From an uncultured Ulvibacter sp. (GTDB lineage: Bacteria > Bacteroidota > Bacteroidia > Flavobacteriales > Flavobacteriaceae): 64,000 nt of DNA. Below, piece after piece: positions 1,344-48,156 of the stretch. Each line of letters opens with the position of its first letter. Position 1 is the stretch's first letter. The notes beneath the pieces were generated by a model. It made no database searches. It saw nothing but the letters and a program-made list of their open reading frames with translations, and was not told the origin of the DNA. The translations under genes and the position numbers were made by a program. Location: assembly GCA_938041335.1 (NCBI GenBank), contig CALIAF010000005.1:25-64024 (forward strand), given 5' to 3'.

Positions 1344-2309
1344 TTATAATATTTCCATAAATTCATTCAGTTGCCAAAAATTCCCTTCAATTATTTCTAC
1401 TATTTGTTCAGTTGAGTTATTTTCTTTATAAATTACTCTCGTTTTTCCAATGTCAGCTTCTTCAAACAATATATACTTTTCTGCATTTTTTAATTCTTTA
1501 AAAGTATTTGGAGAAATCTCTTTTGTTATTAGAACAATAGGAATACCTTTTTTAACATTGTTTTCAATTCTTGGGGTTAAATGCTTATCGTTAAAACCAA
1601 AACCTACAACAAGAAAACTTAAGGCATTATTGATTAGAACATCCGACTTTTGTATTAATTCCCTATATGGCAGATTGTAAGTTTCTTCAAATTTGTTTTT
1701 ACTCGGCACAACAATTTGAGGCAATTCAGTTACTGTCTGACTTGAGAAATAGCGAATTTCTCCATTTACATTAAACCAATTTAAGGAGCCGTGAACTTTC
1801 ACAAGGTTTACAATATTTGCGTCTTTAAAATTGGTTTCATTGAAAATTGATAATGTTTTGCCTTCAAAACCATCAGTAAAGTCTATACATTGATGAGCCA
1901 ATAAATGTTCTAATACTCTATCATAATTCGTTGTAACTATGTTGAGAACTCTGGGGTGTGCTTCAATAAATTTTTTAACCATCAATTTGATGCCGTTGAA
2001 ATCATTTGTATCATTGACAATAATTTTTTTTAGAACTAATACATCAGCATTGTTTACCTCATTCCATATCGTCTTTTTTATTTGAGGTAATTTCTCTTGA
2101 TACTTTTCTTTACCCAGCTCATCTTCTAAATTATCATTTGAAATATCAAAATCTTTAATTTCTTTTTTTAAAACCTCATTTAAATCCTGCATACTTGGTA
2201 ATCCAAAAGAAATCGTTGCTCCAGAACCCCAAACGATTAACGGTGGGTTTTTCAAGAAAGCTTGCACAATTTTGAAGATTTTTTCCTGGATATCTTCTTG
2301 TTTCTTCAT
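1344..2309 (-). CDS. SIR2-like (SIR2_2) NADase, effector of a SIR2-HerA defence pair
   Basis: Motifs WGSGATISFGLPSM, IVTTNYD, KVHGSLNW, IVVPSKNK, FLVVGFGFNDKHL. Confidence 0.9.
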   Translation of the reverse strand: MKKQEDIQEKIFKIVQAFLKNPPLIVWGSGATISFGLPSMQDLNEVLKKEIKDFDISNDNLEDELGKEKYQEKLPQIKKTIWNEVNNADVLVLKKIIVNDTNDFNGIKLMVKKFIEAHPRVLNIVTTNYDRVLEHLLAHQCIDFTDGFEGKTLSIFNETNFKDANIVNLVKVHGSLNWFNVNGEIRYFSSQTVTELPQIVVPSKNKFEETYNLPYRELIQKSDVLINNALSFLVVGFGFNDKHLTPRIENNVKKGIPIVLITKEISPNTFKELKNAEKYILFEEADIGKTRVIYKENNSTEQIVEIIEGNFWQLNEFMEIL

Positions 2310-2583: not shown

Positions 2584-3042
2584 TTGAAAGAAAAAACAAT
2601 AGATTATATATTACGTAGCACTTGGATGGCGGTACAGAAAATGTACAATGAAGAAGCCGGCAGAAAAGGCAGTACGATGGCTACTGGTTTTGCACTGGTA
2701 AGTATCGATCCAGAAGAAGGTACGCCTTCTACCGCATTAGGCCCTAAAATGGGGATGGAAGCCACTTCCCTATCGCGTACCCTTAAAAAAATGGAAGAGC
2801 AAGGCTTAATCGTCCGCAAGCCCAACCCTAACGATGGTCGTGGCGTACTCATCCACCTCACGCCTTTTGGTGTGGAGATGCGCGAATTCTCTAAGAGCGT
2901 GGTCTTTAGTTTTGACGAGGCGGTAAAAGAGAACATTTCAGAAGAAGAAATAAGAATATTTAAAAAAGTTGCTGGGCAGATGATGGAGTTGATTAGTGAT
3001 AAGAAGATTTATAAGAATCAGGAATTAGGGATTAGGAACTAG
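2584..3042 (+). CDS. MarR-family transcriptional regulator of the fad operon
   Basis: wHTH motif TSLSRTLKKMEEQGLIVRKPNPNDGRGVLIHLTPFG; TTG start. Confidence 0.92.
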   Translation: MKEKTIDYILRSTWMAVQKMYNEEAGRKGSTMATGFALVSIDPEEGTPSTALGPKMGMEATSLSRTLKKMEEQGLIVRKPNPNDGRGVLIHLTPFGVEMREFSKSVVFSFDEAVKENISEEEIRIFKKVAGQMMELISDKKIYKNQELGIRN

Positions 3043-3047
3043 GGATT
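3020..3047 (+). repeat. Heptamer tract (AGGRAYT)x4 overlapping the marR 3' end
   Basis: AGGAATT AGGGATT AGGAACT AGGGATT; encodes the terminal ELGIRN. Confidence 0.8.
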
Positions 3048-3063
3048 AGTAAAAAGCAGAAAG

Positions 3064-3291
3064 AGATAAAATATTTCCTTCGGAAATAGGCTTGATTGAA
3101 GCACATTTCAGAAGAAAAAAAAATAGCTCAATTAGACGGCACCCTTTAGGGCCGGGGTGAGCACTAATAAAAAGTAGAAAGTATTAAGATAAAATATTTC
3201 CTTCGGAAATAGGCTTGATTGAAGCACATTTCAGAAGAGAAAAAGAATAAAAAATTAAAGTCCAAGTAGACGGCACCCTTTAGGGCCGGGG
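3064..3291. repeat. Tandem duplicated intergenic unit (52-bp and 25-bp identical blocks, each with a hairpin)
   Basis: 3064-3115 = 3187-3238; 3133-3157 = 3267-3291; hairpins TATTTCC-TTC-GGAAATA and CGGCACCCTTTAGGGCCG. Confidence 0.9.
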
Positions 3292-3326: not shown

Positions 3327-5735
3327 ATGTCAAAACGAAGAATTAATAAAGTAGCCGTAATAGGTTCGGGAATTATGGGAAGCGGGATCGCTTGTCATTT
3401 TGCAAACATTGGCGTGGAGGTATTGCTCCTCGATATCATTCCACGTGAATTAAGCGATAAAGAAAAAGCGAAAGGCTTAACCCTAGAAGATAAAGTAGTG
3501 CGCAACCGTATGGTAAACGACGCATTAACGGCTTCTATAAAATCTAAGCCCGCTCCTTTATATAACACCGAGTTTGCAAAACGCATTACTACGGGGAACC
3601 TGACCGATGATATCGCGAAAGTAGGATCTGTAGATTGGATTATCGAGGTGGTCGTAGAGCGTCTTGATATTAAGCAGCAGGTTTTCGAAAACCTAGAAAA
3701 GCACAGAACACCAGGAACCTTGATTACATCAAACACCTCTGGGATTCCTATAAAATTTATGAGCGAAGGGCGTAGTGAAGATTTCCAGAAGCATTTCTGT
3801 GGAACGCACTTCTTTAACCCACCGCGTTATTTAAAATTATTTGAAATCATCCCTGGACCAAAAACAGCTCCTGAGGTTTTAGATTTCTTTAATAGCTATG
3901 GCGAACAGTTTTTAGGTAAGACCACCGTGGTCGCTAAAGACACGCCTGCCTTTATTGGTAACCGTGTTGGGATCTTCTCTATTATGAGTTTATTCCACGC
4001 CGTTAAAGAAATGGGATTAACCGTAGAAGAAGTAGACAAATTATCTGGACCGGTAATCGGTAGGCCTAAGTCGGCCACCTTTCGTACCGTAGATGTGGTA
4101 GGTTTGGATACTTTAGTACACGTAGCCAACGGGATTCGTGAAAACTGCCCGAAAGACGAGCGTGCTTCTTTATTTGAGCTGCCTGCATTCATCAATACGA
4201 TGATGGAGAACAAATGGCTAGGATCTAAAACAGGACAAGGTTTTTATAAGAAGACTAAAAATGCCGAGGGTAAGACCGAAATTCTAGGTCTTGACTTAGA
4301 CACCTTAGAATACAGAGCGGGTAAAAAAGCAAAGTTTGCCACATTAGAATTAACAAAAACCGTTGATAATGTAGCAGACCGCTTCCCTATCCTTGTTAAA
4401 GGAAAAGACAGAGCTGGTGAGTTTTATAGAAAGTCATTCGCTTCTTTATTTGCATACGTAACCAATCGTATTCCTGAAATATCTGACGAGTTGTACAAGA
4501 TTGATGATGCGATGAAAGCTGGTTTTGGTTGGCAACACGGGCCGTTCCAGATTTGGGATGCCATAGGCGTTGAAAAAGGAATCGAAATCATGAAAGCAGA
4601 AGGACTTGAGCCTGACGCTTGGGTGAACGATATGATCGCGAGTGGTGTGACTTCTTTTTACTCAGTAAAAGATGGCGCAACCTATTTCTACGACATTGCT
4701 AAAAAGGAACAAGTTAAAGTACCAGGACAAGATGCCTTTATCATTCTTGATAATGTACGTAAGACCACCGAAGTATTTAAAAACAGTGGTGTATCTGTAC
4801 AAGATTTGGGCGATGGGATCTTAAATGTAGAATTCCGCAGTAAAATGAACTCCATTGGAGGTGATGTGCTTGCAGGAATCAACAAAGCCATTGACTTAGC
4901 AGAAGATAAATATGACGGTTTAGTGATCGGAAACCAAGGCGCTAACTTCTCTGTTGGTGCAAACATAGGAATGATCTTTATGATGGCCGCAGAGCAAGAA
5001 TACGACGAACTAAACGCTGCTGTAAAGTATTTTCAAGATACGGTAATGCGTTTGCGCTACTCTTCTATCCCAACCGTAATGGCTCCTCACGGGATGACCT
5101 TAGGGGGTGGTTGTGAGTTGACATTACACGCAGATCGCGTGGTTGCCGCAGCAGAGAGTTATATAGGTCTGGTAGAATTTGGTGTCGGTGTGATTCCAGG
5201 TGGTGGTGGTTCTAAAGAAATGGCTTTACGTGCCAGTGATATGTTCCAAAAAGGAGATGTAGAGCTCAACGTATTACAAGAGCATTTCTTAACCATAGGT
5301 ATGGCAAAGGTTTCTACCTCTGCGCACGAAGCATACGACCTTGACATTTTAAAGCCAGGAAAAGATATCGTAGTCGTAAATACCAATCGCCAGATTGCAA
5401 CCGCGAAAGCCGTAGCAAGACAAATGGCAGATATGGGCTACACGAAACCAGCACCTAGAAACGATGTGAAAGTATTAGGAAAGCAAGCCCTAGGGATGTT
5501 CTTAGTAGGAACAGACTCCATGAACGCCAGTAAATACATAAGTGAGCACGATCAGAAAATCGCCAACAAACTAGCCTACGTAATGGCCGGTGGGGATTTA
5601 AGTGAACCACAACTGGTAAGCGAGCAATACTTGTTAGACCTAGAGCGCGAAGCATTCTTGAGCTTAACGGGAGAGCGTAAGACCTTGGAGCGACTTCAGC
5701 ATATGATACAGAAGGGGAAACCTTTGCGTAACTAG
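3327..5735 (+). CDS. fadN: 3-hydroxyacyl-CoA dehydrogenase / enoyl-CoA hydratase (FadN-like)
   Basis: GSGIMGSG Rossmann motif, SNTSG, HFFNPP, C-terminal crotonase GGGCE...GLVEFGVGVIPGGGG. Confidence 0.93.
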   Translation: MSKRRINKVAVIGSGIMGSGIACHFANIGVEVLLLDIIPRELSDKEKAKGLTLEDKVVRNRMVNDALTASIKSKPAPLYNTEFAKRITTGNLTDDIAKVGSVDWIIEVVVERLDIKQQVFENLEKHRTPGTLITSNTSGIPIKFMSEGRSEDFQKHFCGTHFFNPPRYLKLFEIIPGPKTAPEVLDFFNSYGEQFLGKTTVVAKDTPAFIGNRVGIFSIMSLFHAVKEMGLTVEEVDKLSGPVIGRPKSATFRTVDVVGLDTLVHVANGIRENCPKDERASLFELPAFINTMMENKWLGSKTGQGFYKKTKNAEGKTEILGLDLDTLEYRAGKKAKFATLELTKTVDNVADRFPILVKGKDRAGEFYRKSFASLFAYVTNRIPEISDELYKIDDAMKAGFGWQHGPFQIWDAIGVEKGIEIMKAEGLEPDAWVNDMIASGVTSFYSVKDGATYFYDIAKKEQVKVPGQDAFIILDNVRKTTEVFKNSGVSVQDLGDGILNVEFRSKMNSIGGDVLAGINKAIDLAEDKYDGLVIGNQGANFSVGANIGMIFMMAAEQEYDELNAAVKYFQDTVMRLRYSSIPTVMAPHGMTLGGGCELTLHADRVVAAAESYIGLVEFGVGVIPGGGGSKEMALRASDMFQKGDVELNVLQEHFLTIGMAKVSTSAHEAYDLDILKPGKDIVVVNTNRQIATAKAVARQMADMGYTKPAPRNDVKVLGKQALGMFLVGTDSMNASKYISEHDQKIANKLAYVMAGGDLSEPQLVSEQYLLDLEREAFLSLTGERKTLERLQHMIQKGKPLRN

Positions 5736-5743
5736 TTGTAGAG

Positions 5744-5793
5744 GACGTAGGACTTTTTTGCTTTACAGCAAAAATGACTTACGATGTACGACT
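5744..5793 (+). repeat. Opening GAC-heptamer tract upstream of the four-helix-bundle gene
   Basis: GACGTAG GAC ... GACTTAC GATGTAC GACT; 5776-5793 is reverse-complementary to 6178-6195 at 16/18 positions. Confidence 0.8.
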
Positions 5794-5813
5794 AAATTTT
5801 TAAGTGAAATAAT

Positions 5814-6179
5814 ATGGGAGCAAGACACAATTTTAGGAAACTGACTATTTGGAAAGAAGGGATAGAAATCGCTAAGGACACCTATGCTAACACCAAGCTT
5901 TTTCCTAAATCTGAAATGTACGGTTTAAGCAGTCAAATGCAACGCTGTGCTGTTTCAATCCCATCAAATATTGCTGAAGGAACATCACGTAATACAGATA
6001 AACACTTCAAACAATTTTTAGAAACCGCTTTAGGTTCTGCTTTCGAATGGGAAACACAATTAATAATTTCTTTTGAAATTGGATACATATCACAAGAAAC
6101 GTTCACACATTTAGAGAATAAAATACAGAGAATTCAAGGTATGATTACGAATTTTATTAATAATCTTCAAATCAAGTAG
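5814..6179 (+). CDS. Four-helix-bundle protein (23S rRNA IVS / bAvd-like family)
   Basis: HNFRKLTIWKEG...FPKSEMYGLSSQMQRCAVSIPSNIAEG...ALGSAFEWETQLIIS. Confidence 0.92.
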   Translation: MGARHNFRKLTIWKEGIEIAKDTYANTKLFPKSEMYGLSSQMQRCAVSIPSNIAEGTSRNTDKHFKQFLETALGSAFEWETQLIISFEIGYISQETFTHLENKIQRIQGMITNFINNLQIK

Positions 6180-6210
6180 TCGTAAATCGTACGTCGTACC
6201 GTCATAAGTC
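6178..6210 (-). repeat. Closing (inverted) GTC-heptamer tract
   Basis: AGTCGTAAATCGTACGTCGTACCGTCATAAGTC is the reverse complement of GACNTAC-type units. Confidence 0.85.
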
Positions 6211-6222
6211 AAAAATAAAATT

Positions 6223-7413
6223 ATGAAAACAGCATATATAGTAAAAGCATACAGAACTGCCGTAGGGAAAGCAGGAAGAGGAGGATTTCGTTTTAAAAGA
6301 GCCGATGAGCTTGCTGCGGAAACGATCCAACATTTAATGAAGGAGCTACCTAATTTAGATCCTAAACGAATTGATGATGTGATTGTGGGTAACGCAATGC
6401 CTGAAGGTTCGCAAGGATTAAACATGGCACGTCTCATCTCTTTAATGGGATTAGAGATTGTGGATGTTCCTGGAGTAACCGTTAACCGTTTCTGTTCTTC
6501 TGGACTAGAAACCATAGGTATGGCCGTAGCAAAAATACAAAGCGGAATGGCAGAGTGTATTCTTGCCGGTGGTGCAGAATCTATGTCTAGTGTACCAATG
6601 ACTGGTTTTAAACCAGAATTGAACTACGATATCGTAAAAGCAGGACACGAAGATTATTACTGGGGTATGGGAAATACCGCAGAAGCCGTAGCAGAACAAT
6701 TTAACGTAACGCGTGAAGAACAAGATCAGTTCGCTTATGAAAGCCATATTAAGGCCTTAGCAGCGATTGATAGTGATCGTTTTCAAGATCAGATTGTTCC
6801 TATTAATGTAGACGAGACGTTTATCAACGCTGCAGGTAAAAAAGAAACGAGAACCTACACGGTAACGAAAGACGAAGGGCCACGTAGAGGTTCTACCGTA
6901 GAAGCATTAGCAAGATTACGTCCTGTATTTGCTGCTAACGGAAGTGTGACTGCGGGTAACTCATCACAAACAAGTGATGGTGCTGCCTTTGTAATGGTGA
7001 TGAGTGAGGATATGGTAAAAGAGTTAAATCTGGAACCTATTGCAAGAATGGTAAGCTATGCGGCTATGGGTGTGGAACCTCGTATAATGGGAATTGGTCC
7101 TGTTGCTGCCGTGCCAAAAGCATTAAAGCAAGGTGGATTAAGCCTTAACGACGTAAAACTGATTGAATTAAACGAAGCCTTTGCTTCGCAGTCTGTTGCC
7201 GTAATTAGAGAGCTAGGCATCAACCAAGAAATCACAAACGTAAATGGAGGAGCGATCGCATTAGGTCACCCACTAGGATGTACAGGAGCAAAACTATCGG
7301 TACAGTTATTTGACGAGATGCGTAAGCGTAACATGCAAGGGCAACACGGAATGGTAACGATGTGTGTAGGTACCGGTCAAGGTGCTGCTGGAGTTTTTGA
7401 GTTCCTTAAATAA
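6223..7413 (+). CDS. fadA: Acetyl-CoA C-acyltransferase (thiolase)
   Basis: NRFCSSG catalytic Cys, NEAFASQ, GHPLGCTGA, MCVGTGQG. Confidence 0.95.
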   Translation: MKTAYIVKAYRTAVGKAGRGGFRFKRADELAAETIQHLMKELPNLDPKRIDDVIVGNAMPEGSQGLNMARLISLMGLEIVDVPGVTVNRFCSSGLETIGMAVAKIQSGMAECILAGGAESMSSVPMTGFKPELNYDIVKAGHEDYYWGMGNTAEAVAEQFNVTREEQDQFAYESHIKALAAIDSDRFQDQIVPINVDETFINAAGKKETRTYTVTKDEGPRRGSTVEALARLRPVFAANGSVTAGNSSQTSDGAAFVMVMSEDMVKELNLEPIARMVSYAAMGVEPRIMGIGPVAAVPKALKQGGLSLNDVKLIELNEAFASQSVAVIRELGINQEITNVNGGAIALGHPLGCTGAKLSVQLFDEMRKRNMQGQHGMVTMCVGTGQGAAGVFEFLK

Positions 7414-7417
7414 AAAG

Positions 7418-7527
7418 GACGACTTACGACGGTAGGACGTACGACATTAGGACATACGACGGTACGACTTACGACAGTAGGACTTAGGACAGTACGACTT
7501 AGGACAGTAGGACTTACGACGTACGAC
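7418..7527 (+). repeat. 110-bp opening GAC tract with alternating 7-mer/8-mer units (15-bp higher-order period)
   Basis: GACTTAC GACGGTAG GACGTAC GACATTAG GACATAC GACGGTAC GACTTAC GACAGTAG GACTTAG GACAGTAC GACTTAG GACAGTAG GACTTAC GACGTAC GAC. Confidence 0.95.
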
Positions 7528-7528
7528 T

Positions 7529-7600
7529 TTTAAACATTAAAAAGGTAAAATTCATAAAATCCAAAGTATGATATCAAAATTTATAAGTACTATTTCATAA
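7529..7600 (+). pseudogene. 3' remnant 1 of a four-helix-bundle gene
   Basis: Translates FKH*KGKIHKIQSMISKFISTIS*, aligning to FTHLENKIQRIQGMITNFINNLQ of 5814-6179. Confidence 0.75.
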
Positions 7601-7615
7601 AACGTCATTTTTTTG

Positions 7616-7661
7616 GTCGTAAGTCGTAAGTCGTTTCGTCGTATGTCGTATATCTTATGTC
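7616..7661 (-). repeat. Closing GTC tract after remnant 1
   Basis: GTCGTAAGTCGTAAGTCGTTTCGTCGTATGTCGTATATCTTATGTC. Confidence 0.9.
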
Positions 7662-7672
7662 ATTGACAATCA

Positions 7673-7783
7673 ATAATAGCTTTTGAAATAGTGTAGATTT
7701 CGGAAAAAACATTTAAACATTTAGAAGATAAAATTCATAAAATCCAAAGTATGATCTCAAAATTTATAAGTACTACTTCATAA
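7673..7783 (+). pseudogene. 3' remnant 2 of a four-helix-bundle gene
   Basis: Translates IIAFEIV*ISEKTFKHLEDKIHKIQSMISKFISTTS*, vs IISFEIGYISQETFTHLENKIQRIQGMITNFINNLQ of 5814-6179. Confidence 0.85.
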
Positions 7784-7799
7784 ATCAGTATCACTTTTG

Positions 7800-7832
7800 G
7801 TCGTAAGTCGTTTGTCGTTTCGTCTTATGTCG
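7800..7832 (-). repeat. Closing GTC tract after remnant 2
   Basis: GTCGTAAGTCGTTTGTCGTTTCGTCTTATGTCG followed by TTGACAAT, as after remnant 1. Confidence 0.85.
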
Positions 7833-7871
7833 TTGACAATTAATAAATACAATTAAAATAGTTAGATAATT

Positions 7872-9686
7872 ATGGACAATACATCCAATATAAGTGACAA
7901 AGACATCCTAAGAGGAGGTCAATTTTTAGTAAAAGAAACCGCTTGCGAAGATATTTTCACACAAGAAGATTTTACAGAAGAGCAAAAGATGATGAAAGAT
8001 GCGGTGATGGAATTTAATGATCGTGAAATCGTAGCACACAGAGATCGCTTTGAAGCTAAAGACTTTGCATTGACTGAAGAGGTAATGCGTAAAGCAGGTG
8101 AACTAGGATTTTTAAGCGTTGCCGTGCCAGAAGACTTGGGCGGACTAGGTATGGGCTTTGTCTCTACGGTATTAACATGTGACTATATCTCAAGTGGTAC
8201 GGGCTCCTTCTCTACTGCTTTTGGAGCACATACAGGAATTGGTACCATGCCAATTACTTTATATGGTAACGAAGAACAGAAACAAAAATACGTTCCTAAA
8301 TTAGCGAGCGGAGAATGGTTTGGTGCGTATTGCTTAACAGAGCCAGGTGCAGGTAGTGATGCCAATAGCGGTAAAACAAAAGCAGAATTAACAGAAGACG
8401 GGAAGCACTATTTGATCAATGGTCAAAAAATGTGGATCTCAAATGCAGGTTTTTGTACGATAATGATCGTATTTGCACGTATTGGAGATGATAAAAACAT
8501 TACCGGTTTTATCGTTGAGAACGATGCGAGTAATGGAATCACGATGGGTGATGAAGAACACAAATTAGGAATTAGAGCTTCTTCTACAAGACAGGTATTC
8601 TTTAACGATACAAAAGTATCTGTGGACAATATGTTAGCCGGTCGTGGTGAAGGATTTAAAATAGCGATGAATGCACTAAACGTAGGTCGTATTAAGTTGG
8701 CCGCAGCATGTTTAGATTCGCAACGTCGTGTGATTTCTGGCGCTGCAACCTATGCAAATGAGCGTATCCAGTTTAAAACGCCTATCGCGAGTTTTGGAGC
8801 GATCAAATTGAAGTTGGCAGAGATGACTGCTTCGGCGTACGCTGGCGAAAGTGCAACCTACAGAGCTGCAAAAAATATTGAAGACCGTATTAATATGCGT
8901 ATTGCTGCTGGTAACACACATCAAGAAGCAGAATTAAAAGGAGTTGAAGAGTATGCCATTGAGTGTTCTATCTTGAAGGTAGCTGTTTCAGAAGACATAC
9001 AAAACTGTGCAGATGAAGGCATCCAGATCTTTGGTGGGATGGGCTTCTCTGAAGACACCCCTATGGAAGCGGCTTGGAGAGATGCACGTATTGCGCGTAT
9101 CTATGAAGGTACCAACGAGATTAACCGTATGCTAGCGGTAGGAATGTTGGTAAAGAAAGCGATGAAAGGTCACGTTGATCTTTTAGGACCTGCACAAGCG
9201 GTTGCGACAGAGCTTACTTCTATCCCTTCTTTTGAAACGCCAGACTTTAGCGAACTTTTTGCTGAAGAAAAGGATATGATTAAGAAGTTGAAAAAAGTAT
9301 TCCTAATGGTGGCAGGTAGTGCAGCACAGAAATATGGAACAGAACTAGAAAAGCACCAACAGACGTTAATGGCTGCTGCAGATATCTTAATCGAGATCTA
9401 TATGGCAGAAAGTGCGATACTTAGAACAGAAAAGAATGCAAAGCGTTCTGGAGAAGATACACAAGAAGTACAGATTGCAATGTCTAAATTATACTTGTAT
9501 CACGCGGTTGATACCGTTTCTATTAAAGCGAAGGAGTCTATTATCTCTTTTGCTGAAGGTGATGAGCAACGTATGATGTTAATGGGACTTAAGCGTTTCA
9601 CAAAGTATCAGAATATGCCTAACATAGGTGCGATGCGTAAAACGATTGCAGAGAAAGTTTCTGCAGAAGGAAAGTATCCTTTCTAA
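7872..9686 (+). CDS. fadE: Acyl-CoA dehydrogenase
   Basis: CLTEPGAGSDA, GQKMWISNAG, QIFGGMGF, RIYEGTNEINR. Confidence 0.95.
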   Translation: MDNTSNISDKDILRGGQFLVKETACEDIFTQEDFTEEQKMMKDAVMEFNDREIVAHRDRFEAKDFALTEEVMRKAGELGFLSVAVPEDLGGLGMGFVSTVLTCDYISSGTGSFSTAFGAHTGIGTMPITLYGNEEQKQKYVPKLASGEWFGAYCLTEPGAGSDANSGKTKAELTEDGKHYLINGQKMWISNAGFCTIMIVFARIGDDKNITGFIVENDASNGITMGDEEHKLGIRASSTRQVFFNDTKVSVDNMLAGRGEGFKIAMNALNVGRIKLAAACLDSQRRVISGAATYANERIQFKTPIASFGAIKLKLAEMTASAYAGESATYRAAKNIEDRINMRIAAGNTHQEAELKGVEEYAIECSILKVAVSEDIQNCADEGIQIFGGMGFSEDTPMEAAWRDARIARIYEGTNEINRMLAVGMLVKKAMKGHVDLLGPAQAVATELTSIPSFETPDFSELFAEEKDMIKKLKKVFLMVAGSAAQKYGTELEKHQQTLMAAADILIEIYMAESAILRTEKNAKRSGEDTQEVQIAMSKLYLYHAVDTVSIKAKESIISFAEGDEQRMMLMGLKRFTKYQNMPNIGAMRKTIAEKVSAEGKYPF

Positions 9687-10536: not shown

Positions 10537-10560
10537 GAATACGCATACTTGGTACCCACC

Positions 10561-10604
10561 AAAGTAAAAGCTGAATGTATCGAGATACATTCAGCTTTTA
10601 CTTT
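10561..10604. terminator. Perfect 21-bp-arm palindrome, probable bidirectional terminator
   Basis: AAAGTAAAAGCTGAATGTATC-GA-GATACATTCAGCTTTTACTTT between convergent transcription units. Confidence 0.7.
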
Positions 10605-10642
10605 TACTTTTACTTTTACTTTTACTTTTATTTTTACTTTTA
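10595..10642. repeat. Hexamer microsatellite (CTTTTA)x8
   Basis: Six perfect CTTTTA units, then TTTTTA and CTTTTA. Confidence 0.95.
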
Positions 10643-10655
10643 TTTTAAACCGGAG

Positions 10656-28485: not shown

Positions 28486-29949
28486 CTAGAGCCCACTAAT
28501 ATAACCTCCATACACATCTTTAAAACGCATACCATCTGTAAGGTTATATTTACTCAACTTTTTCATCTCCACTAAAGCCCACAAAATAAACTCTTTGAAG
28601 AAAGGGATATCATTGTATGGCACTTCTTGTGCATACTTATGGATTAAATCATCTAAGGGTTCTATTCTGTCTAACTGCAATTGATACTCGTTATCATCTA
28701 GGGTATCTAAAAGCTCAAAACTACTTTGCTCAAAAAACCAAGCTACTATTTCTTGATATGGATCGTGATCGTCTGCTTTTTGTAATTTTTCAATCTTAGG
28801 AAAATAATTTAAAAACTCCGTTTTAATAGCATCAGCCACCAATTGCTTTGCCACCTCATTTGCGCCTTCTTGCTCTCCTTCATATACCAACTCTACTTTA
28901 CCGGTTATGGCAGGTATTACCCCTAAAAAATCACTTACTCGCACACTGGTTTCTATATTACCATTAAGTAAACCTCTGCGTTCTGCCGTACTCAAAAGAT
29001 TTTGGAAAGCTGTGATACTTAAACGAGCACTTACACCGCTCTTAGCATCTACAAATTCGCTGTTTCTTGCCTCAAAACTAATTTGTTCTAAGATGTTTTT
29101 TGCCAGCTCTGGCACATACACATTGGATTTTTCTTTTGCGGCAGCAGCTGTTTCTTGTTGTGTTATTGTTCTAGCAATCTCTAAAGTTTCTGGATAATGC
29201 GTTAATATTTGAGACCCTATTCTATCTTTTAGTGGTGTTACAATGCTTCCTCTGTTCGTATAGTCCTCAGGATTGGCAGTAAACACAAACTGTATATCTA
29301 AAGGCAATCTCAATGCAAACCCTCTAATTTGAACATCTCCTTCTTGCAAAATATTAAATAGGGCTACTTGTATTCTTGCTTGTAAATCTGGAAGTTCATT
29401 AATCACAAAAATACATCGATGAGCTCGAGGGATCATCCCAAAATGAATCACGCGATCATCTGCATAACTCAATTTTAAATTCGCGGCTTTAATAGGATCA
29501 ACATCCCCTATTAAATCTGCAACCGTTACATCTGGTGTTGCTAGTTTCTCAGCAAAACGATAGTCTCGATGCAACCAACTTATTGGTGTATCATCTCCCT
29601 TTTCTTCAAGCAGGTTTTGAGCATATCTTGAGATAGGTTTTAAGGGGTCATCATTGATTTCGCTACCCGCTACAACTGGAATATACTCATCCAATAATGT
29701 AATCATTTGTCGTGCAAGCCTTGTCTTTGCTTGCCCTCTCAAGCCTAGAAGATTGATATTATGTTTAGACAAAATAGCGCGCTCTAGTTCAGGTATCACG
29801 GTATGTTCATACCCGTGAATCCCTTCAAAGACCGTTTCTTTTTTCATCATCTTTTGCAACAAATTACGTCGCAATTCTTCTTTTACTGTCTTGTATTCGT
29901 AACCGGCTTTTTTAAGTGCGCCGAATGTTTTTATGTTTTTTATATCCAT
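28486..29949 (-). CDS. AAA+ ATPase (Mg-chelatase-like / sigma54-interaction-like), partner of the VWA protein
   Basis: GLRGQAKT variant Walker A, INELPDL, FTANPEDYTNRG, DRIGSQI. Confidence 0.85.
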   Translation of the reverse strand: MDIKNIKTFGALKKAGYEYKTVKEELRRNLLQKMMKKETVFEGIHGYEHTVIPELERAILSKHNINLLGLRGQAKTRLARQMITLLDEYIPVVAGSEINDDPLKPISRYAQNLLEEKGDDTPISWLHRDYRFAEKLATPDVTVADLIGDVDPIKAANLKLSYADDRVIHFGMIPRAHRCIFVINELPDLQARIQVALFNILQEGDVQIRGFALRLPLDIQFVFTANPEDYTNRGSIVTPLKDRIGSQILTHYPETLEIARTITQQETAAAAKEKSNVYVPELAKNILEQISFEARNSEFVDAKSGVSARLSITAFQNLLSTAERRGLLNGNIETSVRVSDFLGVIPAITGKVELVYEGEQEGANEVAKQLVADAIKTEFLNYFPKIEKLQKADDHDPYQEIVAWFFEQSSFELLDTLDDNEYQLQLDRIEPLDDLIHKYAQEVPYNDIPFFKEFILWALVEMKKLSKYNLTDGMRFKDVYGGYISGL

Positions 29950-29963
29950 AGTTTTATTTTTTT

Positions 29964-30106
29964 AGAAGCAAGAGGAAAGACGGTTCCTGCGGAACTGAAA
30001 GAGGAAAGATTAAATGTAAAAAATCTTCTAATTCTTCTTATCTAATTCTTCATCAATTCTTTCTTCTTTCAATAAGCCAAGGGAAAGGTCTTTACTTCTT
30101 ACTTCT
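29964..30106 (-). repeat. GAAAGA-family self-complementary element, copy 1
   Basis: Purine arm 29964-30009 with hairpin GTTCC-TGC-GGAAC; pyrimidine arm 30057-30106. Confidence 0.85.
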
Positions 30107-30109
30107 CAT

Positions 30110-30466
30110 TTATTGTAATGTTTTCTGAAATCCGGCCGTCATTCTTTGCCATTCTTCTATTTGACATTCTAACTCTTGTAATTCTTTAATGGTAATATAA
30201 TTTTTATGTTGTGCAATTAATAATTGCATGTTTAATTCATAAGATGACCCCATAGCAATATCTATAAAATGAATAAAAGATTTTTCACTTCTAGCAGAGC
30301 CTTCTGCTATATTACTGGGTATAGAAACGGAACACCTACTAATTTGGGATGTAAGACTATATTGCTCTTTACTAGGGAAATTTTCTATTTTATCTGAAAC
30401 GACAAAAGCAATATTTAAAGCTTTTTGCCAAATTTTTAAATTTCTGAAATTGTGTTTTTTATTCAT
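30110..30466 (-). CDS. Four-helix-bundle protein (23S rRNA IVS / bAvd-like family), second copy
   Basis: HNFRNLKIWQKA...FPSKEQYSLTSQISRCSVSIPSNIAEG...AMGSSYEL. Confidence 0.92.
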   Translation of the reverse strand: MNKKHNFRNLKIWQKALNIAFVVSDKIENFPSKEQYSLTSQISRCSVSIPSNIAEGSARSEKSFIHFIDIAMGSSYELNMQLLIAQHKNYITIKELQELECQIEEWQRMTAGFQKTLQ

Positions 30467-30479
30467 AATTACTGTTTTT

Positions 30480-30639
30480 AGAAGAAAGAAGAAAGACCGT
30501 CCGCCCAGGCGGACTGAAAGAGGAAAGACTTAACTACTCCCAACTTATTGCTTATTCTAAAATCAATCTTTAATCAATATTATCCATTCTGTCTTTCTTC
30601 TTTCAATGAGCGAAGCGAATGGTCTTTCCTCTTACTTCT
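30480..30639 (-). repeat. GAAAGA-family self-complementary element, copy 2
   Basis: Arms 30480-30529 and 30591-30639; hairpin GTCCGCC-CA-GGCGGAC; insert GAGCGAAGCGAATG. Confidence 0.9.
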
Positions 30640-30646
30640 CCATTTT

Positions 30647-31813
30647 TCACCTCAATTTCCGTTTCCTATTATTCTCATAATCGGTAAATATCATCTCTCC
30701 TAATCCTTGCAAGCCTGTATAAAAGGCTTTCCCTTGATTTGCTTCTGTAAACGCATCTACAAACTGCTGTAAGTAGGGGTCACTGGCAATCATAAAGGTT
30801 GTAATTGGAATATGTAACTTTCTAGCCTGAGCTGCCATCATATAACACTTGTTTACAATGTGCTCATCTAAGCCATTACTGTTTTTATAATATCGCCCAT
30901 CTGGCAAACGCAAGCAACTTGGCTTTCCATCTGTGATCATAAAAATCTGTTTGTTGGTATTTCGCTTTCTGCGAAGCATATCCATTGCCAGTTGCAACCC
31001 TGCTACTGTATTTGTGTGATACGGTCCTACATTAAGATACGGCAAATCTTTAATTTTAATAGGCCAGGCATCATTCCCGAAAACTAAAATATCTAGTGTA
31101 TCTTTTGGGTATCGTGTTGTGATTAACTCTGCTAGTGCCATTGCCACTTTCTTGGCTGGTGTGATTCTATCTTCTCCGTAAAGTATCATGGAGTGACTAA
31201 TATCAATCATCAACACCGTGCTCATTTGCGATTTATGCATCGACTCTTCAACCACCAGATCATTTTCTGTTAACTTAAAATCCCCTATTCCATTATTGAT
31301 TTGGGCATTTTTTATACTCTCAGTCATCGAGATTTGATCTAGGGCATCGCCAAATTGATACTTTCTAAAATCACCAGATTGCTCGTCACCACTACCCATA
31401 TATTTTGTTTTGTGATTGCCTTGACCGCTTCTTTTGATCTTTCCAAATATTTGCTCTAAGGCACGTTTCCGGAGGGCTCGCTCTAGTTTTTCTGTGATAG
31501 AAATCCCGCCTTTCCCATCTCCTTTATTCCCACCTTTTCCATCTGGCTTAAACTCCTCTCTTATGTAACCACGGTCTTTTAATTCTTGAATAAAATCGTC
31601 AATGGTATAGTCTTCTGTGGTTATTTCATATTCTTGATCTAACTGTCTCAACCAATCTATGGCTTCATCAAAGTCACCAGAGGTGTGCGTGATTAACTCT
31701 TGAAAAACTTCAAAAAGACGATCAAAAATGGATTTCTCCTTTGGGGTATGTTTGGTAAAAATAAAACCCGATTTAAAGTCTGGGTTAAGGCTATTATTTT
31801 TGTCTTTCGTCAT
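30647..31813 (-). CDS. VWA-domain protein
   Basis: MIDAS-like DISHSM, HTNTVAGL, FMITDGKPS. Confidence 0.88.
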   Translation of the reverse strand: MTKDKNNSLNPDFKSGFIFTKHTPKEKSIFDRLFEVFQELITHTSGDFDEAIDWLRQLDQEYEITTEDYTIDDFIQELKDRGYIREEFKPDGKGGNKGDGKGGISITEKLERALRKRALEQIFGKIKRSGQGNHKTKYMGSGDEQSGDFRKYQFGDALDQISMTESIKNAQINNGIGDFKLTENDLVVEESMHKSQMSTVLMIDISHSMILYGEDRITPAKKVAMALAELITTRYPKDTLDILVFGNDAWPIKIKDLPYLNVGPYHTNTVAGLQLAMDMLRRKRNTNKQIFMITDGKPSCLRLPDGRYYKNSNGLDEHIVNKCYMMAAQARKLHIPITTFMIASDPYLQQFVDAFTEANQGKAFYTGLQGLGEMIFTDYENNRKRKLR

Positions 31814-37239: not shown

Positions 37240-37251
37240 TGTTGCGTAATG

Positions 37252-37279
37252 AGTAGTAAGTAGTAAGTAGTAAGTAGTA
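37252..37279 (+). repeat. Heptamer tract (AGTAGTA)x4
   Basis: Perfect tandem between the S9 peptidase stop and the next start. Confidence 0.9.
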
Positions 37280-37294
37280 AAAATAAAAAAATAA

Positions 37295-46702: not shown

Positions 46703-47410
46703 CTAGTTATTAGGAGTCTCTAAATATGGGAATCCTCCTACTACTCTATCTCCAAAATCAACCCCATCTGAAGTTAATTGAGGGGTATCTGGCATACCGT
46801 CACCATCAGTATCTGATCCATCAAAACGTGTTCCTGTAGTCCCACCAAACATTAAGGTAAGTGAAATATCAATCACATCGTCATTAATTGTTCTACCAGT
46901 TAAAGCATTCACACCATCAAAATAGGTGGTTGTTCCATTTGGTGCAACCTGTAAGGCATCTGTATTTGCCAATACAAAAGCAAAAGTAGGTGCATCAAGA
47001 CCTAAAATGTTTGTCTCATAATCTAAATCTGCTGGATCAATACCTAGTGAGGCAGCATATACATCATGATAGAACTCTAGTCTATCATCAAATTTTTGAG
47101 CAAAACTCGCTCGGTCTGCGTGCAGTGCCAAGTTAAAGTCATTTTTATCGCCATCGTTATCATTAAAAACGGTGTTTATACCCGGACGTCCCATAGCATC
47201 TTCTTGTGTATAATCACCAGAAAAATCTATTGCCGTTGCACAAGGTTCGCAGGCGGTACCACCACAGTCAACTCCTTCTTCGTCACCATTCTGTACCCCA
47301 TCATCGCAGGTTACTTGTATTATTACGTTATCGTCATCGTTACCACAAGCTACAAAAGTTAATGCAGCACAGATAGTAAGTATATATATTGGAAAATTAT
47401 ATGTTTTCAT
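46703..47410 (-). CDS. DUF4331-like lipoprotein with Cys-rich insert (start moved to 47410)
   Basis: Lipobox VAC; CDDGVQNGDEEGVDCGGTACEPC; QEDAMGRPGINT; GRTINDDVIDISL; FPYL. Confidence 0.8.
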   Translation of the reverse strand: MKTYNFPIYILTICAALTFVACGNDDDNVIIQVTCDDGVQNGDEEGVDCGGTACEPCATAIDFSGDYTQEDAMGRPGINTVFNDNDGDKNDFNLALHADRASFAQKFDDRLEFYHDVYAASLGIDPADLDYETNILGLDAPTFAFVLANTDALQVAPNGTTTYFDGVNALTGRTINDDVIDISLTLMFGGTTGTRFDGSDTDGDGMPDTPQLTSDGVDFGDRVVGGFPYLETPNN

Positions 47411-47436
47411 AGTATCTAATTTAATGTTGTTATTAA

Positions 47437-48156
47437 TTACTGCTTTCTTTTTGTAGTTACCCAAACGTTATATGCATCTGGTAATGCTCCTTCTGGAAAC
47501 AAACCGGCTGCCACAGCAACGTGCGTTGGTGCTGGACCTAACATTGCGTTTGGTACCTCAACACTTACGGCTAATACATTTAAGTCTTCAAAGAAATCTG
47601 AAGCTTCTCCTGGAGGTAAAAATCCTTCTGGAGCTACTGCACCAGAAATTACCGCATTAAATCTATTAAAGTCAAAGAAAAAACCATCTCTTCTTGGTCC
47701 TGCAAAAATTGACATTCCGTCTTCAGTAGTTACCTGTAAATCATCAGATGTAGAAATACGTACACTTCGCATTGGTCCAGATGTTTCTATTTGTCCAGTA
47801 ATACCAACAGCAGTTGGGACAACAGGTCCAAAAACATACATAGAATCTCCTCTTTTAACAGCTTGTATTACTAAGTCTTCCACAAAATCGCCATCATTAT
47901 CAATATTAAATTGAATCACAACATCTTCATCAAACTCAGCATTAGTGGTAACGTCTCCTGGCGTTAATGGTCCTTGAACAGTTGCAATTAAAACGGTATT
48001 ATTGGGATTGTCTCCCTCAAAAGCGTATAAATCTGCAATATCAGAAGAAGTTGATGCTACACCTGGTGCATCAATGTGATCTGCTGAAGTAAGGAAAAAT
48101 GCTGCCGAAGCTAAAAGCACTCCACCTACTACCCCAAATAATTTCATTTTTTTCAT
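47437..48156 (-). CDS. DUF4331-family protein
   Basis: SADHIDAP, DIADLYAF, FAGPRRDGFFFD, NVLAVSVEVP. Confidence 0.85.
   Translation of the reverse strand: MKKMKLFGVVGGVLLASAAFFLTSADHIDAPGVASTSSDIADLYAFEGDNPNNTVLIATVQGPLTPGDVTTNAEFDEDVVIQFNIDNDGDFVEDLVIQAVKRGDSMYVFGPVVPTAVGITGQIETSGPMRSVRISTSDDLQVTTEDGMSIFAGPRRDGFFFDFNRFNAVISGAVAPEGFLPPGEASDFFEDLNVLAVSVEVPNAMLGPAPTHVAVAAGLFPEGALPDAYNVWVTTKRKQ

Follow-up and report, generated by a model that had tools for sequence, protein, structure and literature searches.

The closest known entities to the element described here are the intervening sequences (IVS) of 23S rRNA that carry an open reading frame (ORF), found in Leptospira, Coxiella, Xanthomonas, Brucella and alphaproteobacteria, with which it shares the PF05635 / S23p protein family. 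In the IVS of Coxiella burnetii, three to four tandem GACAGAT heptamers, their number varying by strain, lie ahead of the S23p ORF, and the 5' cut by RNase III falls at the start of the first GACAGAT repeat (PMC4990558). PF05635 genes also occur within cas loci, where they have been read as a possible functional association (PMC3936711), and in a 2024 survey the domain was still functionally uncharacterised (PMC11270868). Heptamer repeats of intergenic DNA have been reported as well, as unexplained: TAACTGA heptamers in Beggiatoaceae, Cyanobacteria and Bacteroidetes (PMC4679880), and GGGAATC/GGGGAYT repeats in Xanthomonas and Nostoc (PMC4692102). Neither of these two papers mentions S23p or four-helix-bundle genes. 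Here, we describe a four-helix-bundle gene bracketed by inverted heptamer arrays between the fatty-acid degradation genes fadN and fadA of an uncultured Ulvibacter sp., in a stretch of 64,000 nucleotides (nt) of contig CALIAF010000005.1 (the window). We hold it to be, on balance, an IVS-type selfish cassette that lives in the gaps of protein-coding operons, its arms likely forming a stem processed by RNase III.

The fad locus of the window comprises the following features:

3327..5735, + strand: upstream host gene, FadN-like 3-hydroxyacyl-CoA dehydrogenase/enoyl-CoA hydratase, 802 amino acids (aa) (Pfam 3HCDH_N, 3HCDH, ECH_1)
5743..5796, + strand: opening (5') arm, purine-rich, period 7 (direct reading; inverted pairs I1, I4, I7 and I12 with the closing arm)
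5814..6179, + strand: focal four-helix-bundle / 23S-rRNA-IVS-protein gene, 121 aa (PF05635, TIGR02436, match to 2GSC)
6178..6213, + strand: closing (3') arm, reverse complement of the opening arm (direct reading; I1)
6214..6222, + strand: short A-rich leader ahead of the thiolase start codon (direct sequence reading)
6223..7413, + strand: downstream host gene, FadA-like thiolase (Thiolase_N, Thiolase_C)
7872..9686, + strand: acyl-CoA dehydrogenase (FadE), next after the thiolase and a second gap (domain scan)

The FadN-like protein ends ...GKPLRN*, and the focal gene that follows terminates in a TAG codon at 6177-6179. Its product matches the Pfam family PF05635 (23S_rRNA_IVP) with an E-value of 3.2e-38 (130.6 bits, cut-off 33.8) and the NCBIfam family TIGR02436, 'four helix bundle protein', with an E-value of 3e-36 (123.8 bits, cut-off 24). 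A sequence match to chain A of PDB entry 2GSC (XCC0516), a solved, pentameric four-helix-bundle protein, extends over residues 5-118 (E-value 1.8e-20). A preliminary description of this DNA, made from the letters alone, had placed a four-helix-bundle gene between fadN and fadA in the same orientation, and this is what we find, all three genes being on the + strand. The family motif G..R...S...N..E, which PMC3936711 quotes from Lin 2006 and Zhang 2013, takes the form R44xxxS48xxxN52xxE55 in the focal protein, and R44, S48, N52 and E55 are invariant in an alignment of the protein with 22 homologues (23 sequences). The ratio of nonsynonymous to synonymous substitution rates (dN/dS) has a median of 0.086 over 165 pairs of homologues, which corresponds to strong purifying selection; by this value of ~0.09, the protein is functional. 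PADLOC models gave no match for either of the two four-helix-bundle proteins encoded in the window. A HEPN-like Rx4H reading of R59..H64 was dropped, R59 lying outside the invariant and near-invariant columns and a literature search giving no link to HEPN.

The gene is flanked by GACTTACGATGTACGACT (5776-5793) and AGTCGTAAATCGTACGTC (6178-6195), and 16 of the 18 positions of these two are reverse-complementary. These 18-mers, their coordinates and the overlap of the closing arm with the stop codon had all been given in the preliminary description and are borne out by direct reading, while a repeat search lengthens the pair to 19 nt at 89% (pair I1). The opening arm is made up of the units GGACGTA GGACTTT (5743-5756) and GACTTAC GATGTAC GACTAAA (5776-5796) and is broken up by a small local hairpin (~5746-5783, pair I2). 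The closing arm reads AGTCGTA AATCGTA CGTCGTA CCGTCATA AGTCAAA (6178-6213) and starts inside the stop codon of the focal gene; in most homologous cassettes it starts 0-3 nt past the stop codon, and the A-rich spacer behind it is found in related cassettes as well. The focal unit GACNTAC resembles the Coxiella GACAGAT heptamer. In both the minimum free energy and the centroid RNA folds of 5730-6225 (496 nt) the arms pair with each other (z = -2.28), so that the locus has what characterizes an IVS in this respect, namely inverted flanks able to form a long stem around the ORF.

One rival explanation is that the gene is an ordinary small gene and that the complementarity arose by chance in the AT-rich, low-complexity intergenic DNA on either side. 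Indeed, the focal tracts are short, degenerate and imperfectly matched (16/18), and they receive no call from Tandem Repeats Finder (TRF) at score 30, yet they are truly of period 7. The local reverse-complement alignment of the focal flanks scores 28, whereas the 99th percentile for shuffled downstream flanks is 22, and the same arrangement recurs at most homologues and in other phyla. We searched from the focal protein for homologues 58-87% identical to it, at 80 genome loci in many Flavobacteriaceae genera. At nearly all of these loci, an upstream period-7 tract is followed, downstream of the gene, by a tract that is its reverse complement, the unit itself varying by lineage (GACGTAA/TTACGTC, TAGAATC/GATTCTA, AAGAGAA/TTCTCTT, TGAGACT/AGTCTCA). 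For 98 homologue loci, the inverted score of a locus's own flanks exceeded the 99th percentile of shuffles in 67%, compared with 19% for flanks paired across loci and 12% for flanks in direct orientation; the enrichment of inverted heptamer flanks around homologues on which the preliminary description depended is thus present. Local alignment was used here in place of whole-flank RNAduplex energies, which discriminated poorly, and of shared 6-mer counts, which were noisy.

Arrays of period 7 or 8 are concentrated beside these genes: 150 of 294 lie at most 150 nt from a four-helix-bundle gene, in 6.8% of the sequence (~7.5-fold enriched), whereas arrays of other periods are not concentrated there (32/450). 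Period 7 accounts for 112 of 125 arrays and period 8 for 13, and a typical array has 3-5 units. Taken together, the shuffle scores, the arms in other phyla and the array enrichment refute chance complementarity, to which we assign a negligible probability.

The arrays also have a polarity, a purine-rich opening arm being combined with a pyrimidine-rich closing arm in 61/66 cassettes. Array type follows the protein clade and not the insertion site: GAC/GTC-type arrays are present on both sides for 44 of the 51 proteins at least 66% identical to the focal one and for none of the 47 more distant ones (Fisher p = 8e-21), and both array classes occur at both fad junctions. The unit consists of an opening array of purine-rich 7-nt repeats, a promoterless PF05635 gene and a closing array reverse-complementary to the opening one, and arrays and gene travel together.

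The same design occurs far from the Flavobacteriaceae. A tblastn search of a plasmid collection matched 29 records, and of the 17 loci examined, 10 have clearly significant inverted period-7 arms. They include Nostoc edaphicum ((TAGGGAG)x8 / (TCCCTAC)x5), Nostoc sp. C052 (GGGAACA/TGTTCCC), Nostoc sp. ATCC 53789 plasmid pNsp_c (GGGAAAA/CCCTTTT), Calothrix brevissima (TAGGGTG/CACCCTA) and Geminocystis (AAAAGGG/CCCTTTT), as well as Stanieria, Anabaena sp. 90, Picosynechococcus (borderline) and Riemerella. On a replicon of Azospirillum lipoferum (L171), the tenth has arms of GAGGACG/CGTCCTC heptamers and lies inside 23S rRNA sequence, which makes it a genuine 23S rRNA IVS. In Aulosira laxa, Nostoc sp. 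ATCC 53789 plasmid pNsp_a and Nostoc punctiforme, an opening array of 4-5 units faces a closing arm of only two units. A tblastn search of a phage collection gave no match. Altogether the design is found at the junctions cas6-cas4, cas10-cmr3, nrdB-nrdA, parA-parB and MoxR-VWA (von Willebrand factor A), in addition to the fad junctions and within 23S rRNA. The unit of opening tract, gene and closing tract put forward in the preliminary description is therefore real and recurs in Flavobacteriaceae and in other phyla. Its analogy with the IVS is closer than had been claimed, since the Azospirillum IVS has heptamer arms and the Coxiella IVS has GACAGAT repeats with the RNase III cut at the first of them.

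Three plasmid loci concern cas genes: L167 (Pseudanabaena galeata), L177 (Anabaena sp. 90) and L179 (Picosynechococcus), where four-helix-bundle genes occupy the cas6-cas4 or the cas10-cmr3 gap. The L167 gene, in a cas6-cas4 gap, has 17 AAAAGCT units upstream and ~9 AAAAGCC units downstream, in direct orientation; the AAAAGCY unit also appears in flavobacterial gene-less hairpins (L093, L109). The positions in the cas6-cas4 and cas10-cmr3 gaps suggest that the PF05635 genes of cas loci are insertions into operon gaps.

To see how the unit comes and goes, we turned to metagenomes and compared 80 fad loci whose thiolase shares 81-92% identity with that of the window. Both gaps are trimodal in size among these relatives, being empty, occupied by a gene-less insert or occupied by a full cassette. 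In the fadN-fadA gap, 37 loci are empty, with the fadN stop codon 3-7 nt from the thiolase ATG ('TAA GAAA ATG'), ~20 contain gene-less inserts of 66-132 nt, and 14 contain cassettes of 427-505 nt; for the fadA-fadE gap, the classes are 5-33 nt, 56-224 nt and 405-649 nt. The gene-less inserts are mostly hairpins (median z -2.1, with 21/37 below -2). Entry into operon gaps, as had been supposed, is evident from this presence and absence among close relatives and from the other cassette lineages found at the same junction, and the empty fadN-fadA sites that a comparison across relatives was to look for do exist.

Cassette and host phylogenies are uncoupled. When the identity of the thiolase is correlated with that of the cassette protein, the Spearman coefficient is 0.05 in gap 1 (fadN-fadA, 72 loci) and 0.16 in gap 2 (fadA-fadE, 41 loci); cassette proteins can be as little as 38% identical at a thiolase identity of at least 95%, and up to 90% identical at a thiolase identity of 70-80%. 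Aequorivita sinensis and A. xiaoshiensis carry unrelated cassettes, TGAGACT-type in one and GACNTAA-type in the other, while on both sides their flanks remain 93-100% identical up to ~12 nt from the junction. In two contigs with thiolase genes 98.6% identical, gap 2 holds a cassette in one and an unrelated 69-nt hairpin in the other. Presence and absence at orthologous sites and a phylogeny decoupled from that of the host, which are the generic marks of a mobile element, are thus both found. The cassette is evidently a mobile unit: irrespective of host phylogeny, the same operon junctions acquire it, lose it or exchange it for another, and it decays into gene-less hairpins and pseudogene remnants. 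The preliminary description had noted no rRNA, reverse transcriptase or transposase nearby. Our domain scan, which took in most of the window's ORFs of at least 90 aa, likewise detected neither a reverse transcriptase nor a transposase, and the Rfam scan yielded no rRNA or other family in the window and none at the cassette, at either gathering or E-value thresholds. The unit needs no neighbouring transposase or reverse transcriptase.

Between loci L039 and L006, from two Aequorivita species with different cassettes, the last 3-4 fadN codons are synonymously recoded (CTT AGA AAT TAG / TTG CGT AAT TAA) and the first fadA codons differ (MKTAY versus MKQRTAY), which means that the exchange took in a few codons of fadN and of fadA. 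Between close strains, the cassettes may also spread by replacement, through homologous recombination with alleles from a donor. A G+C-rich type of insert occurs at the same fad junctions (L089, L099, L155 and L163 in gap 1; L091, L114 and L125 in gap 2) and consists of two short hairpins, e.g., CCCCTAAAGGGAGG ... CTCCCTCTCCTTTGGAGAGGG, with an AT-rich spacer between them. Because these inserts share the sites, the fad junctions suggest themselves as general landing sites for hairpin elements.

The occupancy data also bear on the possibility that hairpin and protein are a domesticated host module, kept for a benefit to the operon, such as intercistronic mRNA processing or stabilization or the regulation of fatty-acid degradation, with patchiness the result of repeated loss. 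In favour of such a module, many Flavobacteriaceae genera carry the gene at these fad junctions, purifying selection on it is strong, and it has the orientation of the operon and apparently shares its transcript. However, 46 of the 80 close relatives have a fadN-fadA junction that is empty or nearly so (at most 50 nt), including the 37 with 3-7 nt, and unrelated cassette lineages are found at the same junction. The same design at unrelated gene pairs and in 23S rRNA, together with decay to pseudogenes, also in the second gap of the window itself, makes domestication an improbable account.

For the IVS-type selfish cassette that we favour, we propose the following mechanism, modelled on the IVS of rRNA. 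The cassette would be transcribed by read-through from the host operon, and the two arrays would pair in the transcript to form a long stem, which RNase III would cut, as in the Coxiella IVS with its cut at the first heptamer. Cleavage would set the cassette mRNA free while the cistrons on either side stayed functional, and for that reason insertion would be nearly harmless. The protein would act on behalf of the element, and the most plausible way is that it binds the heptamer arrays; its solved relatives are pentameric Avd-like nucleic-acid binders. Excision or processing at RNA level and a protein that binds its own repeats had been suggested in the preliminary description as well, and they are likewise predictions here. 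A terminator-like site is absent from both the cassette and the leader at 6214..6222. In a scan for sigma-70 promoters and terminators, the cassette did not exceed shuffle expectation, the tool being one that does not cover Bacteroidota promoters. Cassettes fit snugly between the stop codon and the A-rich leader. A metatranscriptome contig of 4.26 kb with a related cassette (L097) runs unbroken through fadN, a hairpin, fadA, the cassette and fadE. Among RNA sequencing runs, neither the window nor L153 was represented, and for L097 a search of 2026 raw-read runs of one organism turned up no matching reads. The missing terminators, the snug placement and this contig are consistent with read-through and processing.

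Several observations weigh against this mechanism or limit how far the survey carries it. The RNA-derived contig crosses the arms without a break, which means either that some transcripts are unprocessed or that DNA contaminated the sample. Among the mismatches of the arm alignments, those that would be G:U on the sense RNA are not favoured (84, versus 121 A:C), which argues against selection acting specifically on a sense-strand RNA stem. Among the cyanobacterial cassettes, at least three run antisense to the neighbouring genes, and 4 of the 17 plasmid-collection loci are exceptions to the design, the Pseudanabaena arrays being direct and Nostoc 7120, HK-01 and Calothrix PCC 7716 being without inverted arms. 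No target-site duplication is discernible in comparisons of filled with empty sites, and the source metagenomes contain no same-strain empty allele or excision product at an identity of at least 97%. The genome survey, being seeded with the focal protein, is enriched for fad-junction copies, and the locus counts are not phylogenetically independent. A skip of the cassette seen at 88% identity was rejected as same-strain excision, as it comes from co-occurring relatives.

The unbroken contig, the lack of a G:U excess, the antisense cassettes and the absence of a preferred orientation among solo hairpins, in which the 5' half is the more purine-rich in 19/37, make a DNA-level role of the arms a serious rival. 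Here, the inverted arrays would be terminal or sub-terminal repeats, or would form a DNA hairpin or cruciform, recognized by the four-helix-bundle oligomer or by a host enzyme; the RNA stem would be incidental, and the gene-less hairpins would be non-autonomous derivatives resembling MITEs (miniature inverted-repeat transposable elements). The preservation of arms in antisense cassettes, the sharp breakpoints in near-identical backgrounds and the co-variation of array type with protein clade, as for a cognate pair of protein and end, fit such an element well. On the other hand, the 121-aa protein has no known catalytic domain, and Pfam, NCBIfam and PADLOC detect neither a recombinase nor a nuclease in it, target-site duplications are not seen, and in the one relative studied experimentally, the arms act in RNA, through excision by RNase III (PMC4990558). 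Moreover, a role in the transcript accounts more easily for the strong polarity of the arms, purine then pyrimidine with respect to the ORF. We consider the DNA-level explanation clearly the less probable of the two, while giving it more weight than domestication. RNA-level and DNA-level roles of the arms are not mutually exclusive.

Two further cassettes are present in the window. The gap between the thiolase and acyl-CoA dehydrogenase genes (7414-7871) is filled by a decayed second cassette at 7417-7834:

7417..7529, + strand: opening array of the decayed cassette, ~15 units of (N)NTA[CG]GAC (TRF period 15/30, score 141-162)
7529..7600, + strand: pseudogene remnant 1, C-terminal ~23 codons (..FKH*KGKIHKIQSMISKFISTIS*) (direct repeat D2, frame translation)
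7611..7661, + strand: closing array 1, GTCGTAA-type units (TRF period 7)
7667..7783, + strand: pseudogene remnant 2, residues ~82-120, with an in-frame stop (tblastn)
7795..7834, + strand: closing array 2, GTCGTAA / GTCGTTT units (TRF period 7; direct repeat D3)

The opening array contains 14 clustered TASGAC hexamers, and its inverted pairs I1-I3 match 7616-7650. Remnant 1 is related at 92% to 7709-7784 by direct repeat D2, and closing array 2 is related to closing array 1, likewise at 92%, by direct repeat D3. In tblastn, the proteins that match remnant 2 best (L038, L034 and others) are 70-76% identical to it over their residues 82-114 (E-value ~1e-13). The gap thus displays two tandem copies, ~183 nt apart, of a gene C-terminal remnant, a closing array and TTGACAAT(C/T)AATAA. 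This layout looks like a route from full cassettes to gene-less hairpins.

The third cassette is intact and lies between the genes for a MoxR-like AAA ATPase (28486..29949) and a VWA protein (30647..31813), all on the minus strand:

29959..30114, - strand: second copy of the hairpin, downstream of the second gene (direct repeats D1-D4, 78-90%; inverted pairs I4 and I5)
30110..30466, - strand: second intact four-helix-bundle gene, 118 aa (PF05635, E-value 2.8e-31; BLASTP)
30475..30647, - strand: whole hairpin upstream of the second gene (inverted pairs I2, I8 at 14/14, and I9)

The second intact protein is 42% identical to the focal one (BLASTP), and each has its own array type. Its cassette (29959-30647) is a variant in layout, with a whole hairpin of ~150 nt on each side of the ORF and not a single arm. 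The hairpins are built from AAGAGGA/AAGAAGA-type units; in the upstream one, the purine arm reads GAGAAGTAAGAGGAAAGACC..GAAAGAAGAAAGAC and the pyrimidine arm GTCTTTCCTCTTTCA..GTCTTTCTTCTTTCTTC.

Other repeats in the window were noted as well. At 3013-3049, GGAATTA GGGATTA GGAACTA GGGATTA forms the 3' end of a MarR-family ORF (2584..3042), with no complementary closing tract after it; the MarR-fadN gap has period-7 arrays in relatives too (positions ~460-540 of several loci). Upstream of the FadN-like gene, an element of ~125 nt is present in two tandem copies at 3050-3290, each with the hairpins ATTTCCTTCGGAAAT and GGCACCCTTTAGGGCCGGGG; it has no Rfam match and may be a regulatory RNA or belong to another repeat family. 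A lone array, (GTAGTAA)x4, follows directly on the stop codon of an S9 peptidase gene at 37250-37280, ahead of a DUF2490 gene; it has stop codons in all three frames and no inverted partner. The stretch 10560-10647 consists of a perfect hairpin (GCTGAATGTATCGAGATACATTCAGC) and, after it, (CTTTTA)x9; the sole Rfam match there is a spurious one to a miRNA family that stays below threshold. A SIR2-like protein, encoded at 1344-2309 (-) just upstream of the MarR-fad region, very strongly matches a PADLOC defence SIR2 model (E-value 1.3e-156). The overlapping ORFs 47437..48156 and 46703..47464 (46703-48156, -) match successive parts of DUF4331 and may represent a frameshifted or split gene.

The recurrence of the design invites a wider, and at present speculative, reading, in which PF05635 proteins are the dedicated factor of widespread transposase-less cassettes with inverted heptamer ends. 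ORF-bearing rRNA IVS, cas-associated 23S_rRNA_IVP genes and many intergenic heptamer repeats (short tandemly repeated repetitive sequences (STRR), TAACTGA, GGGAATC) would then have a common origin, and spread would be unconventional. It could involve RNase III-released, protein-bound RNA and a reverse transcriptase acting in trans, echoing the part of Avd in diversity-generating retroelements (DGRs), or alternatively a DNA hairpin intermediate. Four puzzles would perhaps find one explanation: the purpose of the ORFs in rRNA IVS, the heptamer-rich intergenic DNA of cyanobacteria, Xanthomonas, Beggiatoaceae and Bacteroidetes, the 23S_rRNA_IVP genes in cas operons, and the relatives of Avd outside DGRs. 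If the cassette is indeed selfish and cut out of the host transcript, it would be the bacterial equivalent, protein-coding and at home in ordinary operons, of an intron-like strategy, and a mobility system without a recognizable recombinase. For annotation and context-based function prediction, PF05635 genes should be treated as insertions and not as partners of their neighbours.

Comparison with the known systems places the focal cassette closest to the ORF-bearing 23S rRNA IVS. In both, inverted flanks can build a long stem with the ORF in its loop; also shared are tandem-heptamer flanks (GACAGAT in Coxiella, PMC4990558; GAGGACG/CGTCCTC in Azospirillum), sense orientation to the host transcript, a sporadic distribution and no transposase. 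The focal host site, however, is a gap between protein-coding cistrons and not helix 45 or 25 of 23S rRNA; because its flanks are protein-coding and the window has no rRNA, the cassette lacks the defining feature of an IVS, residence in rRNA. Furthermore, the focal ORF is under strong purifying selection (dN/dS ~0.09), whereas the Coxiella ORF is decaying and probably untranslated, and RNase III excision, experimentally supported in Coxiella, is a prediction for the focal cassette. With Avd of DGRs, the protein probably shares a homologous four-helix-bundle fold, and the bAvd-like family PF22296 co-matches many of its relatives and the second gene of the window. The cassette is nevertheless not a DGR, because there is no reverse transcriptase among the scanned ORFs of the window (template/variable repeat pairs were not searched for); in addition, Avd genes are not reported with heptamer arms, and the focal family has no phage match by tblastn.

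The unexplained intergenic heptamer repeats (cyanobacterial STRR, TAACTGA, GGGAATC) resemble the arms in being period-7 arrays in intergenic or intra-operon gaps whose copy number varies between close relatives; they occur in the same PF05635-rich phyla, and some units are alike (AAAAGCY in Pseudanabaena and in flavobacterial solo hairpins). They are, however, mainly direct arrays (PMC4679880, PMC4692102), whereas here inverted pairs surround a gene. MITEs and repetitive extragenic palindromic doublets forming hairpins (REPINs) are likewise intergenic hairpin-forming repeats, with gene-less copies outnumbering gene-bearing ones and with presence or absence differing between strains. In contrast to these, the cassette has no REP-associated tyrosine transposase (RAYT) or other transposase, and its arms are lineage-variable, degenerate tandem heptamers and not a conserved palindrome; the features that identify an insertion sequence or MITE are missing, with no transposase among the scanned window ORFs and no target-site duplication in the filled-versus-empty comparisons. 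Like integron cassettes, the unit has a promoterless ORF, here presumably expressed by read-through, and an imperfect inverted repeat conserved as structure and not as sequence, but it lacks an integrase and attI, its arms stand on both sides of the ORF and not just behind it, and many different operon junctions are used. A full-text literature search found neither the gene-plus-inverted-heptamer unit nor operon-gap residence described, although subscription journals may hold earlier accounts. The preliminary description knew of no characterised system of this type, which is fair for a cassette in operon gaps but overlooks a precedent, the unit being a variant of the known IVS element. The IVS element itself is thus known, and what is new here is an element of the IVS type in mRNA operons.

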